64,000 bases of DNA, taken from assembly GCA_044226045.1 (NCBI GenBank), contig JBGAHR010000002.1, positions 97,059 through 161,058 on the forward strand, given 5' to 3'. Of the stretch, positions 13,748 to 44,998 are shown in pieces (position 1 is the first letter of the stretch; each line of letters starts with the position of its first letter). The position numbers were made by a program, and so were the translations under genes. The notes below the pieces were generated by a model. It was not told where the DNA came from, did no database searches, and was given only the letters and a program-made list of their open reading frames with translations. Source of the DNA: Chitinophagaceae bacterium (lineage in GTDB: Bacteria; Bacteroidota; Bacteroidia; Chitinophagales; Chitinophagaceae).

Positions 13748-15994
13748 TTAAAGGGCGCTGTTCATCACTTCGTCGGAACGATCTACTCCGAAACTCAGGA
13801 AGGCGCCAATGAAAACAAACATCCGGGAAGGCGGAACAATAGCCTGCTTGCGGAGACCATTGTACGAATACTGGTATCCATACACCTGGCGGATATTGAA
13901 GATATTGCTCACCTGCAGCACATACACATCATACACTTTCGGTTTCTTCTTTCCAATGAACGGAAGGTAATTGATCGAGAAACTCACGTTGTGATATTCC
14001 GGTGTGCGGCCCATATCATTGAACTTATAATTGGCTCCGTCAAATCCGATGTTGTAATAAGGGCGACCGCTGGCAAAGTTGTAAGCCGCATTGAGGTTCA
14101 TCTTCCAGGGCGAAACGAATTTCTTTACGATAAGTGAAGCCGTGTGTTTGGCTGCGAAGTTGGGTGTGATGGCTGATGGAAAATTCAGGAAATCACGTTT
14201 GGTATCGAGATAGGAATACGAAATCCAGTAGTCGAGATTTTTGATGTTCTTCTTGTCTCTCCAGAAAAATTCAATCCCTTTGGCATCTCCATACCCATTA
14301 TTATTCAAAGCCACTTCCCTGCCTGCAGAAAAATCTGTCTTCACCAGGTCTTCATATTTTTTATAGAATACTTCCACACGGAAAGTGGTTCTGTTCTGCA
14401 CTTTCAGGTATTGTGCGATATAGTGCGTTGCCTTAGCGAAAGTGAGCGCACTGCTGGTTGGCAGGTATTTTCTCTCCGGCGTTTGATAAAAGATTCCATA
14501 GGCCAGGGAAGCCTGGTTTTCTTTATCAAACTTGTACGCAACCGACGCTCTCGGTGCAAAATTGGTTTTATCCAGGATGGCGGAATGCTCCAGGCGACCT
14601 CCTATTTTAGCAGCGATGTTGTTGGTGATGTAGATATCTGCTTCCCCGAACGCCGCTTTGAGGTTTTCATTCACCACCAGCGGATAGGTATTATTGTTAT
14701 AATCGGTGAAAAGACTTTTTTCATGGCTATAATTATATTCTCCACCGAAACGAATGCCAGACAACCCTCTTAAGCGACGTTCAAGTACTATCCGCGCGTT
14801 GAGGAACTGACCCCGATTGTCTACCCTGAATTGTTTGAACTCCAGGCCGGAAACCAGGTCATCCTCTTTGTCGGCATTTTTCATTCCGCTGTTGATCTTG
14901 TCCCTGTTGAAAGAAAAAGAAAGGCCGGTATAGATTTTCCATTTCCTGCTAAGACTTTCTTTCCAGGAAAAATTATGATAGGTATTCGAGTTGCTCAGAC
15001 CGAATTTGTCGAATAAACCCAGTGAATCAAGACTGTTGGTTGTAAATGCCATCCGGTTCGAATTGAAGTAACCATAATACTTCAACATCCCCGTTTTGGA
15101 GGTTTTGATGCGAAAGTTCGCATCTGCCCCATGTATTTCAGGTGATTTGGAATAGTCCTGTTGTTGTTTGAATACTGCAAATGCAGGAGCCAGGTTGGTG
15201 TAATTATAACTGCCACCCCAGGAGTATCTCTTTTTGGGATCGAGGTATTGGTAACCGCCACTGGCTCCTAGTACGGATATACCCAGGTTGGCAGTTGTTC
15301 TTTCGGGCAAATCAATAGATTCAAGGATGAGTGCTGAAGAAAGTGCTTGTCCGTATAATGCCGAATAACCTCCGGTGCTGAAAACGGTTCCTTTAAATAT
15401 GAAAGGCGAAAAGCGGCTGAAGGCTGCGATATTGGGTGCGCCGGTAAAGAAGAAATTATTAACCAGGGTTCCATCGATAAAGGTTTTTGTTTCCGCAGCG
15501 GTTCCTCCTCTTACAAATAATCCTTCGCTTTCCCCTACTGTCTGAGCGCCTGGAAGTGTTTTCAGGGCTCCTGTGATATCACCATTAGCGCTGGCCGTTG
15601 TAACAATGTCGATGGGATCGAGAATAGCAGCCGCGCGTTTGCGGTCGCTTGCCTCAAAACTGCCCGCTGAAATCACTACCGCCGTCAGTTCGTTGGGCTC
15701 TTCTTTCATTACTATATTAATGGTGATGGTTCCTCCGGCGAGGTTTACTTTCTGTTCCTGCAGTTTATACCCGATGGAAGTGTACAATAATATATGATCT
15801 CCTTTTTCCGTGGTTCGGAAACGATAATTACCGGTAGAGTCTGATGTACCTCCATCATAACTGTCTTTTACAGCGATACTGGCGCCTGAGAGAGGCTTTC
15901 CTTTTTGATCCCTGATCTTTCCCGTAACGACCGTTTGAGCGGAACCCATCAGAAAGGAAAGCAGCAGCAGCAGAATCGGTATAACCTTGAACAT
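13748..15994 (-). CDS. TonB-dependent receptor with N-terminal carboxypeptidase-regulatory-like domain
   Basis: VTGKIRDQKGKPLSGASI N-domain; plug GDITGALKTLPG...LFVRGG; beta-barrel-like C-terminal part. Confidence 0.88.
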   Translation of the reverse strand: MFKVIPILLLLLSFLMGSAQTVVTGKIRDQKGKPLSGASIAVKDSYDGGTSDSTGNYRFRTTEKGDHILLYTSIGYKLQEQKVNLAGGTITINIVMKEEPNELTAVVISAGSFEASDRKRAAAILDPIDIVTTASANGDITGALKTLPGAQTVGESEGLFVRGGTAAETKTFIDGTLVNNFFFTGAPNIAAFSRFSPFIFKGTVFSTGGYSALYGQALSSALILESIDLPERTTANLGISVLGASGGYQYLDPKKRYSWGGSYNYTNLAPAFAVFKQQQDYSKSPEIHGADANFRIKTSKTGMLKYYGYFNSNRMAFTTNSLDSLGLFDKFGLSNSNTYHNFSWKESLSRKWKIYTGLSFSFNRDKINSGMKNADKEDDLVSGLEFKQFRVDNRGQFLNARIVLERRLRGLSGIRFGGEYNYSHEKSLFTDYNNNTYPLVVNENLKAAFGEADIYITNNIAAKIGGRLEHSAILDKTNFAPRASVAYKFDKENQASLAYGIFYQTPERKYLPTSSALTFAKATHYIAQYLKVQNRTTFRVEVFYKKYEDLVKTDFSAGREVALNNNGYGDAKGIEFFWRDKKNIKNLDYWISYSYLDTKRDFLNFPSAITPNFAAKHTASLIVKKFVSPWKMNLNAAYNFASGRPYYNIGFDGANYKFNDMGRTPEYHNVSFSINYLPFIGKKKPKVYDVYVLQVSNIFNIRQVYGYQYSYNGLRKQAIVPPSRMFVFIGAFLSFGVDRSDEVMNSAL

Positions 15995-16010: not shown

Positions 16011-16038
16011 CAAAAATAAAGTAGTTTACAATATAAAC
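16011..16038 (-). promoter_or_regulatory. -7 box TATTTTTG with adjacent palindrome GTTTA-N5-TAAAC (candidate operator)
   Basis: CAAAAATA at 16011-16018; GTTTACAATATAAAC at 16024-16038. Confidence 0.5.
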
Positions 16039-16100
16039 CAAATAAAGTTTAGTGTTTTCGTAGAGAAGATAACTAATTGATTGTGTGTACTCGGTAAGAG

Positions 16101-16177
16101 GTTTGCGGTTGGCGGTTGGCGGTTGGCAGTTTGCGGATGTTGGATTGGTAATTCGTATGATTCGAGTAATTCGCGTT
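16101..16177. repeat. TTGGCGG heptamers followed by AATTCG nonamers
   Basis: ggttggcggttggcggttggcag, then aattcgtat gattcgagt aattcgcgt. Confidence 0.75.
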
Positions 16178-16179
16178 AT

Positions 16180-16243
16180 AAAAAAAGAGCCCCCCTGTGG
16201 AAACAGGAGGGCGTTTGTTGATCGTACCCTTTAAAAAAATATT
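16180..16243 (-). terminator. Intrinsic terminator preceded by a conserved 26-nt motif (copy 1 of 3)
   Basis: Minus strand: ..TTTTTTAAAGGGTACGATCAACAAAC GCCCTCCTGT TTCC ACAGGGGGGC TCTTTTTTT; the stem mismatch is a G-U pair only on the minus strand. Confidence 0.8.
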
Positions 16244-16474
16244 AATGCGAATTATGCGAATTATGCGAATTAGGCGAATTATGCGAATTAGGCGAATTAG
16301 GCGAATTAGGCGAATTAGGCGAAACGCTGAGGGCGCAGAAGACGCCGAATAAACTGTCGGGCTAACGCATTGCTTTCTCTTTCCGTTTCTGTTTCTCTTT
16401 CTGTTTCTGTCTCCCTTTCCGTTTCACTTTCTTTTTCTCTTTCTCAACCTCTTTCTGTTTCTCTTTCTGTTTCT
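16244..16474. repeat. Composite cassette: CGAATTA(T/G)G nonamers, ACGCTGAGG-type units, TTTCTC/TTTCTG hexamers
   Basis: Directly visible; the hexamer end abuts the stop codon at 16475. Confidence 0.9.
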
Positions 16475-17806
16475 CTACTTCGATTTTACAAATTGCTGGG
16501 TAATCGTTTCACCTTCTGCGCTGGCTCTTACAATATAGGTGCCAGACAGCAGGGAGCTGATATCCATTACTTCGGTCTGACTGGCATTGGTTCTGGCTAC
16601 TCTTTTTACGGTTTGTCCGCTTACGTTGAAAATATCGTATTGAACCTTTTTGTCTTGCCAGGAGGATGGTATGGTCACCCGCACTTCATTAACCGCCGGG
16701 TTGGGATAAACCTGTATACTAAGTGACTTTGCTCCTTCTGTGAATTTCACCAGCCTGGTCTCTGAATAACGATACTTCTGATCCATGTCGATCATACGCA
16801 GGCGGTAGTACAGTATTCCTTTGGCAGCAGGCAGTGCATTATCCTGGTAAGAATATCTGCTTTCCAGCTCGGTGGTACCGTTGGCAAACACCATTGCGAT
16901 ATCCTTGTATTCGCTGCCATCGGTGCTTCTTTCGATAACATAGGCGCTCAGGTTTTCTTCCCTGGACGAAACCCAGCTAAGCATTGGCTTCTTATTATCC
17001 AGTTTAACGGAGAACGACTTCAGTGTTACCGGAAGGCCAAGTTCTACAGGCTTCTGGTAGGTAAATGCTTTAAACCAGAAAGAATACATCCGGTCGGCAG
17101 CGCCGCTGGATCCTGTACTGTGTCCGCCGGTGCGGATACGCAAGGTATTGACTGTTTGATATGTTGTTGTAGCCATTACGCGGGTGGCCGAGGTGTCGAT
17201 ATTTGTATAGTTGGCAATCGGACCGTTAAACCGGGTTCCCACAACAGTGTTGACGCTGTTGATCATTTCCCAGATGCTGGCATACTGAAGCTGGGTATTG
17301 TTTTCGAGTGTGTAGGATTTCTGTCCATAGAAGCTTACCCACTCATTGATCTTGTCGGCATTGCCATCGATGTCGAGCGCGGTGATATTGAAAGCGCTTA
17401 CATTGGCCGGTGAATTATTGCTGTTTACAAAACTGATAGTAAACTCCATCCACCAGTCGCTGGTACCCGATGGGGTGGTACCATTATTATAGGTAACCTG
17501 TGGCTGAAATGCTTTGTCGAATCCGGTTGTTGCCAGGTCGATGTCTACCAACTTCACCAATGCGTTTGACCGGCCGGTTATCTTAACCAATGCATTCACT
17601 CCAGCTGTCACATTCGTGAATTGGTAGATTGCATTGTCTTGTCCGGCTTGTCCGGACTGTAAGGAGGGATTCTTAAATATGAGTTCCTGCTGAGCTTTGG
17701 CCTTTGGCAAGAGAGCTCCTAAAAAAACAAGGGTCACCAGACAGGCTTTACGAAGTGTTGCAAAGCCATTCTTTCTGTTGATACCAGGGTAAAATTGCTG
17801 TTTCAT
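16475..17806 (-). CDS. T9SS type A sorting domain protein with uncharacterised N-terminal beta domain
   Basis: Likely start MKQQFYPG at 17806; LGLPVTLKSF module; CTD IQVYPNPAV...LLSGTYIVRA...QFVKSK. Confidence 0.85.
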   Translation of the reverse strand: MKQQFYPGINRKNGFATLRKACLVTLVFLGALLPKAKAQQELIFKNPSLQSGQAGQDNAIYQFTNVTAGVNALVKITGRSNALVKLVDIDLATTGFDKAFQPQVTYNNGTTPSGTSDWWMEFTISFVNSNNSPANVSAFNITALDIDGNADKINEWVSFYGQKSYTLENNTQLQYASIWEMINSVNTVVGTRFNGPIANYTNIDTSATRVMATTTYQTVNTLRIRTGGHSTGSSGAADRMYSFWFKAFTYQKPVELGLPVTLKSFSVKLDNKKPMLSWVSSREENLSAYVIERSTDGSEYKDIAMVFANGTTELESRYSYQDNALPAAKGILYYRLRMIDMDQKYRYSETRLVKFTEGAKSLSIQVYPNPAVNEVRVTIPSSWQDKKVQYDIFNVSGQTVKRVARTNASQTEVMDISSLLSGTYIVRASAEGETITQQFVKSK

Positions 17807-17896
17807 GATTAGTACGTTTAACTTTTTCAATTGGTACAATAGATGAAAGTTTACCGCAGGTAATTGGAGGCAATAACAAGAGGAATGGATTTATTT

Positions 17897-18190
17897 ATAC
17901 GCGAATTATACGAATACACGAATTACTCGAATTAGGCGAATCGCTGAGGGCGCTGAAACACTGAATCACCGCTTACGCTGTCGCTACCGCTCTTTCACTT
18001 TCTCTTTCTGTTTCTTTTTTCGTTTCCCTTTCTGTTTCTCTTTCTGTTTCTCTTTCCCTTCTGTTTCTCTTTCCGCTCTCGCTCCCACTCACGCTCCGTT
18101 TAACGCTCCCGCTCCCACTCCCGCTCCGTTTAACGCTCTCGCTCTCACTCCCGCTCCGTTTTCCGCTCCCGCTCTCGCTCCGTTCAACCC
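17897..18190. repeat. Composite cassette (nonamers, GCTGA units, TTTCTC/CGCTCC hexamers)
   Basis: Same module order as 16244-16474. Confidence 0.88.
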
Positions 18191-18203
18191 TCCCAGGGTT
18201 TTC

Positions 18204-18265
18204 AAAAATGGCCATCCCGTAGAAACGGGACGGCGTTTGTTGATCGTACCCTTTAAAAAATATTT
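18204..18265 (-). terminator. Intrinsic terminator plus conserved 26-nt motif (copy 2)
   Basis: Stem GCCATCCCGT AGAA ACGGGACGGC at 18211-18234, then GTTTGTTGATCGTACCCTTTAAAAAA. Confidence 0.78.
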
Positions 18266-18400
18266 ACACGAATTATACGAATTATACGAATTAGGCGAAT
18301 CGCTGAAAACGCTGAGGACGCTGAAAACACTGAATGAATCACCGCTCTCGCTGTCGCTTACGCTCAGTCTACCGCATCCGCTTCTTCTGTTTCTGCGCTT
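18266..18400. repeat. Short composite cassette
   Basis: cgaattata nonamers, aacgctgaggacgctgaaaacactgaa, then CGCTCT/CGCTGT hexamers. Confidence 0.8.
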
Positions 18401-18606
18401 GTTTTGCGGCGAACAGTCGTTCGACTATAGACTTAAGCCCATAAATAAAAAACTAAGATTGTTACCTTTCATGAGGAAGAAATGGACAGGTGGTATTTGT
18501 GAGGATTGGAAGGAAGGAATACCATCAGGTTCAATTATGAATAGCCTGCAATTTCATAAGGCATTTTCAATATGGCAGCTTGTTCACGCTGCCTGACCAA
18601 ACCTGT

Positions 18607-18668
18607 AAAAAGAGTCATCCCGTAGAAACGGGACGACGTTTGTTGATCGTACCCTTTAAAAAATATTT
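18607..18668 (-). terminator. Intrinsic terminator plus conserved 26-nt motif (copy 3)
   Basis: Stem GTCATCCCGT AGAA ACGGGACGAC at 18614-18637, with a compensatory change relative to copy 2. Confidence 0.8.
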
Positions 18669-18885
18669 ATGCGAATTAGGCGAATTATACGAATTGGGCG
18701 AAACGCTGAGGACGCTGAATACCCAGAGGACGCCGAATGAATCACCACTCCCGCTCCGTTTAACGCTCCCGCTCCGTTTGCCGCTCCCGCTCACGCTCTC
18801 GCTTCCACTCTCTCTTTCCCTTTCTCTTTCTGTTTCTCTTTCTCTTTCTCTTTCCCTTTCTGTTTCCCTTTCCGTTTCTCTTCGA
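18669..18885. repeat. Composite cassette abutting the stop of 18886-20244
   Basis: Nonamers, ACGCTGAGG units, CGCTCC/TTTCTC hexamers. Confidence 0.88.
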
Positions 18886-20244
18886 TTATTTCTTCACGAT
18901 CCTTTGTGTTGCAGATTCGGTTCCGTTCGACACTTTCACTACATACATACCAGCTACCAGGCCATTCACATTGAGGGTTTCTGTTTGACCAGATCTGTTC
19001 ACCGCTGCATGCTTAACCAATTGACCGTTGATATTGAAAAGATCGATTGATACGTTCTGATTCTGCCAGGTTGCAGGTACTGTTACCCTAACTTCATTCA
19101 CTACCGGATTGGGATACACTGATACTTTTACCTCTTCCTGCTTGTCGCCGATGCGAACCAGTCTGACTTCAGAGTATTGGAATTTTCCATCTAAATCTAC
19201 CATTTTCAGTCTGTAGTAGAGTACCCCTTTTGTATCTGTATTCAGCGCGTCGGAGTAACCATAATTTTGTTTTACGTCAGAGTTGCCGTTTGCAAATACC
19301 ATTGCTACATCCTGGTAGCTTACACCGTTGCTGCTGCGTTCGATTACAAAGTGGCTCAGTTGCTTCTCTTTTCCGGTTACCCAGTTTACAGACACTTTCT
19401 TGTTGTTAACAGTTGTATTGAAATCGAGCAGCACCAGGGGCAAGGTAAAATTGGCCGGTGTCTGATAAGTAAAGTTCTTAAAGTAGAAAGAATACATGCG
19501 GTCGGAAGCGCCATTGGCAGCTGATGCCACTCCACCTGTGCGAACACGGAAGCTGTTACGGTTCTGAAAAGTAGCAGTAGTCATTACCTTGGTTCCGCCG
19601 GTGTCGATGTTTGCGTAGTTGTCAACAGGACCATCGAAGCGTTTGCCGTCGAGAGTCAGCAATCCCGACAATGTTTCGAAAAGGTTGGAAACAGTCAGCA
19701 ATGAGTTAAGTTCGAGTGTATAAGACTTCAACTCGTACAGGGAAACGAACTCATGCAGTTTATCGCCATTTCCGTCGATATCGATGGCTGAAAGTACAAA
19801 CTGGTTTACAGTAGTGGCATTGGTCGTATTACGGTTAACGAAGCTGACCTCGAATTCCATCCACCACTCGGCAGCGCCGCCTGTATTTCCATTATTGTAA
19901 GAAACCTGTGGCTGCCAGGCTTTGTCCCATCCGGTATTCGTCAGATCGATACTCACCAGGCTAACGAGGCTGCTTGAACGCTGTTTGATCGTTACCAGTG
20001 CATCCACATCATTCGATACCTGCGCAAAACGATATACGGCGCCGTCCTGACCAGCTACACCGGATACCAGGGTTGCATTTTTCCAAACCAGTTCAGGAAT
20101 GTTGTTGTTATTATTGGTAGCAGACGCTGTGTAGAAGGCAAAAAGTGATACCAGCAAGGTGATCAGAATCCTGCGAAGAAGAGCAGGCTGGTATACGGGT
20201 ATAGCAATAGCTTGAGGGCACAGGTACGTTTTCATTTCTTTCAT
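18886..20244 (-). CDS. T9SS type A sorting domain protein, tandem paralog of 16475-17806
   Basis: ELVWKNATLVSGVAGQDGAVYRF vs ELIFKNPSLQSGQAGQDNAIYQF; shared WWMEF, DIDGN and DRMYSF motifs; CTD VYPNPVVN...LVAGMYVVKV...RIVKK. Confidence 0.87.
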   Translation of the reverse strand: MKEMKTYLCPQAIAIPVYQPALLRRILITLLVSLFAFYTASATNNNNNIPELVWKNATLVSGVAGQDGAVYRFAQVSNDVDALVTIKQRSSSLVSLVSIDLTNTGWDKAWQPQVSYNNGNTGGAAEWWMEFEVSFVNRNTTNATTVNQFVLSAIDIDGNGDKLHEFVSLYELKSYTLELNSLLTVSNLFETLSGLLTLDGKRFDGPVDNYANIDTGGTKVMTTATFQNRNSFRVRTGGVASAANGASDRMYSFYFKNFTYQTPANFTLPLVLLDFNTTVNNKKVSVNWVTGKEKQLSHFVIERSSNGVSYQDVAMVFANGNSDVKQNYGYSDALNTDTKGVLYYRLKMVDLDGKFQYSEVRLVRIGDKQEEVKVSVYPNPVVNEVRVTVPATWQNQNVSIDLFNINGQLVKHAAVNRSGQTETLNVNGLVAGMYVVKVSNGTESATQRIVKK

Positions 20245-44920: not shown

Positions 44921-44925
44921 TACGT

Positions 44926-44964
44926 ATTATTCGTATAATTCGTGTAATTCGTGTAATTCGTGTA
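44926..44964. repeat. AATTCGTGT nonamer array
   Basis: attcgtat aattcgtgt aattcgtgt aattcgtgt. Confidence 0.8.
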
Positions 44965-44965
44965 C

Positions 44966-44998
44966 AAAAAAAAGGTCCCCTGGTAGAAACCAGGGGAC
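44966..44998 (-). terminator. Minus-strand intrinsic terminator with GT-TTCT-AC loop and no upstream CDS
   Basis: GTCCCCTGGT AGAA ACCAGGGGAC perfect stem with A8 on the plus side. Confidence 0.8.

Follow-up and report, generated by a model that had tools for sequence, protein, structure and literature searches.

A small-RNA-like element with an invariant strand and a covarying terminator hairpin, conserved across Chitinophagaceae, and its predicted target, a type IX secretion metalloprotease operon

The window analyzed here, a stretch of 64,000 nucleotides (nt) from the genome of a Chitinophagaceae bacterium, contains three copies of a short element that consists of an invariant strand followed by a hairpin and that lies beside two paralogous genes for cargo proteins of the type IX secretion system (T9SS). 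All genes in this part of the window are encoded on the minus strand, in the order atpH, atpA, T9SS-cargo paralog A, T9SS-cargo paralog B, and a TonB-dependent-receptor-like gene. Paralog A (18886..20244, minus strand; 452 amino acids, aa) and paralog B (16475..17806, minus strand; 443 aa from the ATG at 17806) both match the Pfam sorting domain Por_Secre_tail (6e-16 and 8.4e-15, respectively). This C-terminal domain is the sole recognizable domain of paralog A, and the two genes are 73-79% identical in their best-matching DNA stretches. Relatives keep the gene order around paralog A, and the orthologues of paralog B within the genus (58-88% identity) are each followed by the element. The receptor-like gene (13748..15994, minus strand; 748 aa; Pfam CarbopepD_reg_2 and Plug) always follows the last element.

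Copy 3 of the element (18604..18669, minus strand) is located behind paralog A, in its 3' untranslated region (3' UTR), and copy 1 (16179..16244, minus strand) occupies the same position behind paralog B, where it is the final copy ahead of the receptor-like gene. Copy 2 (18201..18266, minus strand) stands alone between the two paralogs, not directly behind a gene. On the plus strand, the 26-mer GTTTGTTGATCGTACCCTTTAAAAAA is exactly repeated at 16213-16238 (copy 1), 18235-18260 (copy 2), and 18638-18663 (copy 3), in each case preceded by an A-run and a hairpin with a 10-bp stem and a 4-nt loop (16189-16212, 18211-18234, and 18614-18637, respectively). Read on the minus strand, the layout of every copy is a U-rich stretch, AAAGGGUACGAUCAACAAAC, the 10-bp hairpin, and finally U5-U7 (U-runs at 16180-16188, 18202-18206, and 18607-18611). 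Neither the remainder of the window (shuffle expectation 0) nor the whole 4.7-Mb genome contains a fourth match to the 26-mer at three or fewer mismatches.

The stems of copies 2 and 3 differ by a single compensatory pair (GCC.../...GGC versus GTC.../...GAC), and the stem of copy 1 is largely unlike both. G-U pairs of the stems on the minus strand correspond to A-C mismatches on the plus strand, and the U-run follows the stem on the minus strand; the polarity of the RNA is therefore minus. A preliminary description of this DNA had reported the three identical 26-mers, the compensatory differences between their stems, and the minus polarity, and all three observations are reproduced here. When the copies were folded, the core (the first 26 nt) was unpaired in both the minimum free energy and the centroid structures, and the hairpins reached -17.7 to -19.5 kcal/mol (copy 1, -19.2; copy 2, -19.5; copy 3, -17.7). 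The copies thus combine the features of an intrinsic, Rho-independent terminator, namely a stable stem-loop with a U-run on the minus strand and, for copies 1 and 3, a site at the 3' end of a transcription unit, behind paralogs B and A.

The other 12 species of the genus all have homologs of the element, in one to six copies each and always at a single locus. A covariance model (R1) was built from a genus alignment of 28 distinct copies; the window copies score 85.9 bits (copy 1, E 2.5e-19), 86.7 bits (copy 2), and 86.8 bits (copy 3) against it. The sequence TTTTAAAGGGTACGATCAAC is invariant across this alignment, whereas the stems and flanks vary. Compensatory changes were detected in all 10 stem pairs, with 98.9% of the positions paired, as compared to 31-50% when the partner columns were slid and 63% in column shuffles, and RNAalifold independently predicted the identical stem. 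Screening of 301 family genomes with the model revealed matches at E<1e-9 in 12 further genera, and the 60 copies recovered from other genera retain both the invariant strand and the covarying stem (95.2% paired).

Roughly 20 nt of the core are invariant across at least 13 genera, over which the neighboring proteins drop to 40-60% identity. An exact 14-mer of the core was found in 37 of the 301 family genomes, and its reversed control in none. An exact 19-mer was found in at least 119 public records, including those of cultured Niastella, Flavihumibacter, Longitalea, Paraflavitalea, Flavitalea, and Puia. One Fusibacter record also carries the exact 19-mer; it lacks the hairpin, and with an estimated four or so chance hits expected in 596 Gb we regard it as a chance match. 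Rfam, searched at gathering and at permissive thresholds, contains no relevant family that matches the region, and the core sequence has no match in the searchable literature. These observations suggest that the element, with its invariant 20-nt strand and its terminator hairpin, is small-RNA-like, previously undescribed, and conserved across the family Chitinophagaceae.

The organization of the locus is also conserved across genera. Nearly always, atpA is followed by one or more T9SS genes, then by one to six elements, often in tandem, and then by the TonB-dependent-receptor-like gene. In most species only 10-25 nt separate the stop codon of the T9SS gene from the element, which is therefore the terminator of this gene. 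Other copies stand alone, often head to tail, in tandem units of 86-480 nt. For example, one genus has six copies, five of which are spaced by 122 nt, another has four copies 86-88 nt apart, and the genus of the window has tandem units of 179-190 nt. In one genome, blastx detected no homolog of the window's T9SS proteins upstream of the element; here atpA, with a terminator of its own, is followed by about 400 nt without evident coding (as judged by eye) and then by the element. One genus has a second element locus; the gene ahead of the element there belongs to the same T9SS family, as a paralog with 30% identity.

Collectively, the presence of the element in every species of the genus and in 12 or more genera beyond it, its synteny, its invariant strand, and its fully covarying stem agree with the earlier proposal of a selected RNA element at 3' ends. 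That proposal was to be abandoned if the motif proved to be confined to three recent duplicates, and the family-wide conservation shows that it is not. The description as purely a 3'-UTR feature was too narrow, given the stand-alone and tandem copies. A hairpin near position 44975 had also been likened to the three copies. It does share their loop (UUUCUA); however, it lacks the 26-mer and matches only the hairpin half of the covariance model (25.5 bits, model positions 27-66), and we rejected it as a fourth copy in favor of an ordinary terminator with generic terminator resemblance.

Several other assignments of the element were considered and rejected. A dispersed repeat of the repetitive extragenic palindromic (REP) or miniature inverted-repeat transposable element (MITE) type is inconsistent with only three copies, all inside 2.5 kb, and with the confinement to a single locus in almost every related genome. 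A CRISPR array is inconsistent with units of 86-480 nt that are each closed by a terminator and with inter-element sequence that is itself repeated in several arrays. An inspection by eye of small open reading frames (ORFs) in the units, and of the coding potential of the core, revealed no conserved start or frame. The genes adjoining the element (paralogs A and B and the receptor gene) were also rejected as pairing targets, their matches to the core being weak (z about -2 at best).

Additional exact 14-15-mers of the core, in antisense orientation, were detected in three genera, and all of them lie in one orthologous operon that is unlinked to the element. This operon encodes a secreted protein of 153 aa without a Pfam family, followed by a zinc-metalloprotease-like protein of 525 aa with the zincin motif HEAGHTLGLQH and sub-threshold matches to reprolysin-like Pfam families. 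No sorting-domain model matched the 525-aa protein; it nonetheless probably carries a T9SS-type sorting tail, as judged from its C-terminal sequence and from a weak blastx match between the homologue in genome G015 and the C-terminal part of paralog B. In the genome to which the window belongs, the operon is located outside the window (G000:C56:13118-15202, minus strand), with the complementary site at 15242-15258. The anti-core site reads ..UUGUUGAUCGUACCC(UU).., contains the seed CGUACCC, and lies 35-65 nt before the AUG; one genome has two perfect anti-core sites in tandem between the two genes of the operon.

The operon was taken from 28 element-bearing genomes, and in each a leader of 150 nt ahead of the start codon was scored for complementarity to the core. 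A site was identified in 20 of the 28 leaders, representing six genera, with energies of -19.7 to -28.0 kcal/mol and z of -4.5 to -8.7. Among 100 shuffled cores, none paired as well with these 20 leaders, and the opposite strands of the target loci reached just -13 to -20 kcal/mol. None of the seven homologous leaders from element-free genomes has the site (z above -1.6), and the 153-aa gene itself is present in 28 of 40 element-bearing genomes versus 7 of 50 others. Between genera the leaders can otherwise hardly be aligned, but the position of the anti-core is the same in all six. Its seed forms a conserved island in which the sole deviations, CGUACCU and CGUGCCC, still pair with the core via G-U. 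In the genome of the window, the leader site ranks third in complementarity to the core overall and first outside long coding frames. These results suggest that the leader site of the metalloprotease operon is probably a regulatory target of the element.

The complementarity often reaches into CCCUUU(U)AAAA of the leader, which suggests an RNA that contains AAAGGG together with some of the U-stretch. Such an RNA would fit either cleavage within the A/U-rich sequence or a more distant upstream start. Further conserved islands of the long target leader are AAAATAT, CGTTTA, and AATCCAAA.

We favor, at a probability of about 0.6, the interpretation that the element encodes a base-pairing small RNA (sRNA) that is both 3'-UTR-borne and produced from stand-alone, tandemly amplified units. 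Each copy would encode the 3' part of a minus-strand transcript in which (UUUU)AAAGGGUACGAUCAACAA(A)C is unpaired and is followed by the hairpin and U-run, the layout of a seed-plus-terminator sRNA. The RNA would derive from the 3' ends of T9SS-cargo mRNAs (copies 1 and 3) or from stand-alone units (copy 2, and up to six copies in relatives). Its invariant stretch is predicted to pair with the conserved leader site of the unlinked metalloprotease operon, which would couple the expression of one T9SS cargo family to that of another. The fuller proposition, that a new Chitinophagaceae-wide sRNA carried on T9SS-cargo 3' UTRs and in tandem genes controls a T9SS metalloprotease operon through 15-25 nt of leader pairing, we consider somewhat better than an even bet.

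The element has the features expected of an sRNA in that a conserved single strand lies upstream of a terminator hairpin and a complementary site in a putative target mRNA co-occurs with it. The preliminary description had left the choice among a 3'-UTR-derived sRNA, a protein-binding site, and a processing signal; the first is now favored because a conserved complementary leader site, co-occurring with the element, was found. Twenty invariant unpaired nt must meet an invariant partner. The anatomy, polarity, conservation, covariation, complementarity, and co-occurrence with the element are read directly from the genomes, and all functional statements are computational; we infer that a discrete small RNA accumulates, pairs with the leader in vivo, and changes the expression of the operon.

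A number of observations weigh against this interpretation. Eight element-bearing genomes, from four genera, lack the leader site. An antisense search confined to the genome of the window performed no better than shuffled cores, 4 of 40 of which reached -27 kcal/mol, and the case for the target rests on its recurrence across genomes. The top antisense hits in that genome (-27.0, -25.5, and -25.2 kcal/mol) do not rise above the shuffles and were discarded as evidence, the top two lying within coding sequence for hydrophobic LLIVLF-type segments. The folds of the target leaders share no common structure that hints at a mechanism and, with the core invariant, compensatory changes between sRNA and target cannot be scored. 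An exact TAnnTTTG is present within 150 nt upstream in 0 of 102 non-redundant copies, and no motif recurs at a fixed -33 distance, AAGAG and a T-run being the only features at a fixed upstream position. Finally, 20 invariant nt exceed what a single pairing of 7-15 nt would require, which makes it likely that the element has a protein partner or additional targets.

This excess of invariance is also what lends some weight to a different explanation, in which the element acts solely as a module of mRNA 3' ends, combining a terminator with a protein-binding, RNase-processing, or stability signal, and the anti-core is the relic of an inverted copy. Its placement 10-25 nt behind T9SS stop codons in most species and the stand-alone copies, for which no promoter was found, fit such a module, and in some leaders (e.g., g70) a hairpin precedes the anti-core, as it would in an inverted element. 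A neutral relic would, however, be expected to decay, and the anti-core is kept in the diverged leaders of six genera, only where the element exists; in addition, copies that stand alone or in tandem without a gene are hard to explain as mRNA-stability modules. We therefore consider this explanation rather unlikely. A regulon at the level of DNA, in which one transcription factor binds a motif of about 15-20 bp at both loci and the hairpin is a local terminator, is doubtful to a greater degree. The motif is common to two kinds of loci, a protein footprint could account for 20 invariant bp, and the site at the second locus, located past the promoter region and ahead of the start codon, would suit a roadblock repressor. 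Yet in more than 100 copies the motif keeps a fixed distance and orientation with respect to the covarying hairpin and U-run, operators in the form of tandem-array sites at gene 3' ends are without known precedent, the motif at the second locus is always oriented for RNA complementarity, the deviations in its seed are wobble-compatible transitions, and no regulator gene is linked to the locus.

The last two alternatives are very improbable. The element could be a target site or companion non-coding RNA (ncRNA) of a transcription system, guided by RNA, that combines dCas12f with an extracytoplasmic function (ECF) sigma factor, since it resembles the helix-turn-helix (hth)-associated ncRNAs described for Bacteroidota at dCas12f-sigmaE target sites, which have a conserved, guide-like 5' end and no known promoter and lie upstream of TonB-dependent transporter genes (PMC13472631). 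The missing promoter motif and the T-rich stretch ahead of the invariant 20 nt add to this resemblance. However, the guided_TnpB model NF040570 has no match at E<=0.01 in this 99.99%-complete genome, while control genomes were positive, and no core copy of 13 nt or more adjoins a TnpB/Cas12f-like gene. No HTH or sigma-factor gene is present at the locus either, where the neighbors are atpA, atpH, the two T9SS-cargo genes, the receptor-like gene, and small ORFs of unknown function. The receptor gene has a canonical TTTG/TAnnTTTG promoter after the element, and an antisense partner site in an mRNA leader is foreign to that system. For the present genome this explanation is largely refuted. A recent tandem duplication or gene conversion of sequences that serve termination only, as the three copies within 2.5 kb beside paralogous genes could suggest, is the least credible of all: the paralogs are only 73-79% identical even in their best DNA stretches, and family-wide conservation, with 20 nt unchanged over at least 13 genera while the adjoining proteins fall to 40-60% identity, refutes it.

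The proposed sRNA has parallels in other phyla. CpxQ, SroC, and DapZ of Proteobacteria are 3'-UTR-derived sRNAs that depend on Hfq and arise by RNase E processing or from an internal promoter; to our knowledge, Bacteroidota do not have Hfq. Like these sRNAs, the element has a terminator in common with a coding gene and a predicted seed just upstream of the hairpin, and it would tie its host gene's expression to unlinked, here predicted, targets. Unlike them, it also occurs in stand-alone, amplified copies. LhrC1-5 of Listeria and Qrr of Vibrio comprise near-identical sRNA copies with the same seed, some of them head to tail, presumably for dosage. The element likewise has several near-identical copies with the same seed, and differs in phylum and sequence, in a copy number that varies from one to six by species, and in units as short as 86 nt.

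Within the Bacteroidota, sRNA regulation is, as far as we know, described almost exclusively from gut Bacteroides. The element resembles the FopS/GibS sRNAs of Bacteroides thetaiotaomicron, which are multicopy, have an unpaired and conserved 5' portion of about 20 nt that acts as an extended seed ahead of a terminator hairpin, and target the 5' regions of mRNAs for cell-surface and outer-membrane proteins (PMC11697453, PMC7366714); one FopS member is 3'-UTR-derived (PMC11697453). The likeness thus extends to the same phylum, multiple copies, a conserved unpaired stretch of about 20 nt, a terminator, and 3'-UTR-derived members. In contrast, FopS genes are dispersed and have canonical promoters, whereas the element occupies one syntenic locus, is often in tandem, and lacks a canonical -7 box (an exact TAnnTTTG was found upstream of 0 of 102 copies). 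FopS also pairs at the start codon rather than, as predicted for the element, 35-65 nt upstream of the AUG, and its target is SusC rather than a T9SS metalloprotease operon. The element is not known to be related to FopS in sequence. The hth-associated ncRNAs discussed above differ from the element in that no dCas12f/TnpB, sigma-factor, or HTH partner was found for the latter. In Chitinophagaceae, which inhabit soil, water, and sludge, searches of the literature and databases returned no described sRNA that matches the element.

From a comparative standpoint, the element is a very well defined sRNA candidate: its seed is invariant, its terminator covaries fully, its synteny is fixed, its copy number varies, and one specific, conserved target is predicted for it. 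Carriers exist in culture, among them Niastella caeni, N. populi, Flavihumibacter petaseus NBRC 106054, Puia sp. P3, and Longitalea luteola, which makes the hypothesis directly testable. If it is correct, the element would be a first instance of T9SS cargo genes being coordinated through RNA and would imply post-transcriptional cross-talk among the cargos of this secretion system, and the invariant strand, given its unusual length, would hint at a protein as a second partner. The element would also be useful as an annotation feature, for which the covariance model has already been built.

Several further features of the locus were noted. Right behind the last element lies a canonical Bacteroidota promoter that belongs to the receptor-like gene (TTTG, then the palindrome GTTTA-N5-TAAAC, then TAnnTTTG; consensus as cited in PMC7366714), and the last element would therefore also insulate this gene from upstream transcription. 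The promoter lies at about 16011-16042 (minus strand), with a TTTG box at -33, the palindrome GTTTAnnnnnTAAAC between the boxes, and TATTTTTG at -7. The palindrome is kept in many genera (TTTGGTTTATAAAATAAAC...) and looks like a repressor operator.

The non-coding segment upstream of copy 2 (18267..18603, minus strand) comprises about 200 nt of unique sequence and minisatellites and corresponds, by dissection of the units, to the body of the tandem units of relatives; no promoter was found in it. The suggestion that this stand-alone unit is a copy of the promoter or leader of the T9SS genes was rejected, as 38-40 of 200 shuffles equaled the similarity. Reading by eye, we noted inside the stand-alone unit an ORF of 41 codons (MRKKWTGGICEDWKEG...; 18471-18596, plus strand) whose end lies immediately ahead of the copy 3 hairpin.

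Arrays in relatives display two further features. At locus L034 (genome G009), a truncated copy of paralog A (a 233-aa ORF) is located within the tandem element array, which indicates that arrays grow through duplications that take in gene fragments. At loci L024 (G005), L010 (G010), and L006/L009 (G012/G009), a degenerate reverse complement of the core follows right after the U-run (e.g., TTGATCGCACC and CTTCGTACCC). This feature is not universal, being absent from the window copies and from many genera; where present, it could allow a read-through transcript to mask its own seed.

Minisatellites flank the elements and other terminators of the window, at 16060-16178, 16239-16474, 17890-18200, 18261-18400, 18664-18885, and 44925-44965. 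Their periods are 9 nt (nnCGAATTA), 12 nt (CTTTCTGTTTCT), 6 nt (CGCTCC), and 8 nt (GGTTGGCG), and the 9-nt, 12-nt, and 6-nt types have swollen the 3' UTRs of the window to about 220-240 nt. In the whole genome, 60 loci carry the 9-nt type and 17 carry the 12-nt type. The minisatellites are a property of the lineage and lie outside the conserved element, and the closest relative (G003) has analogous yet different ones.

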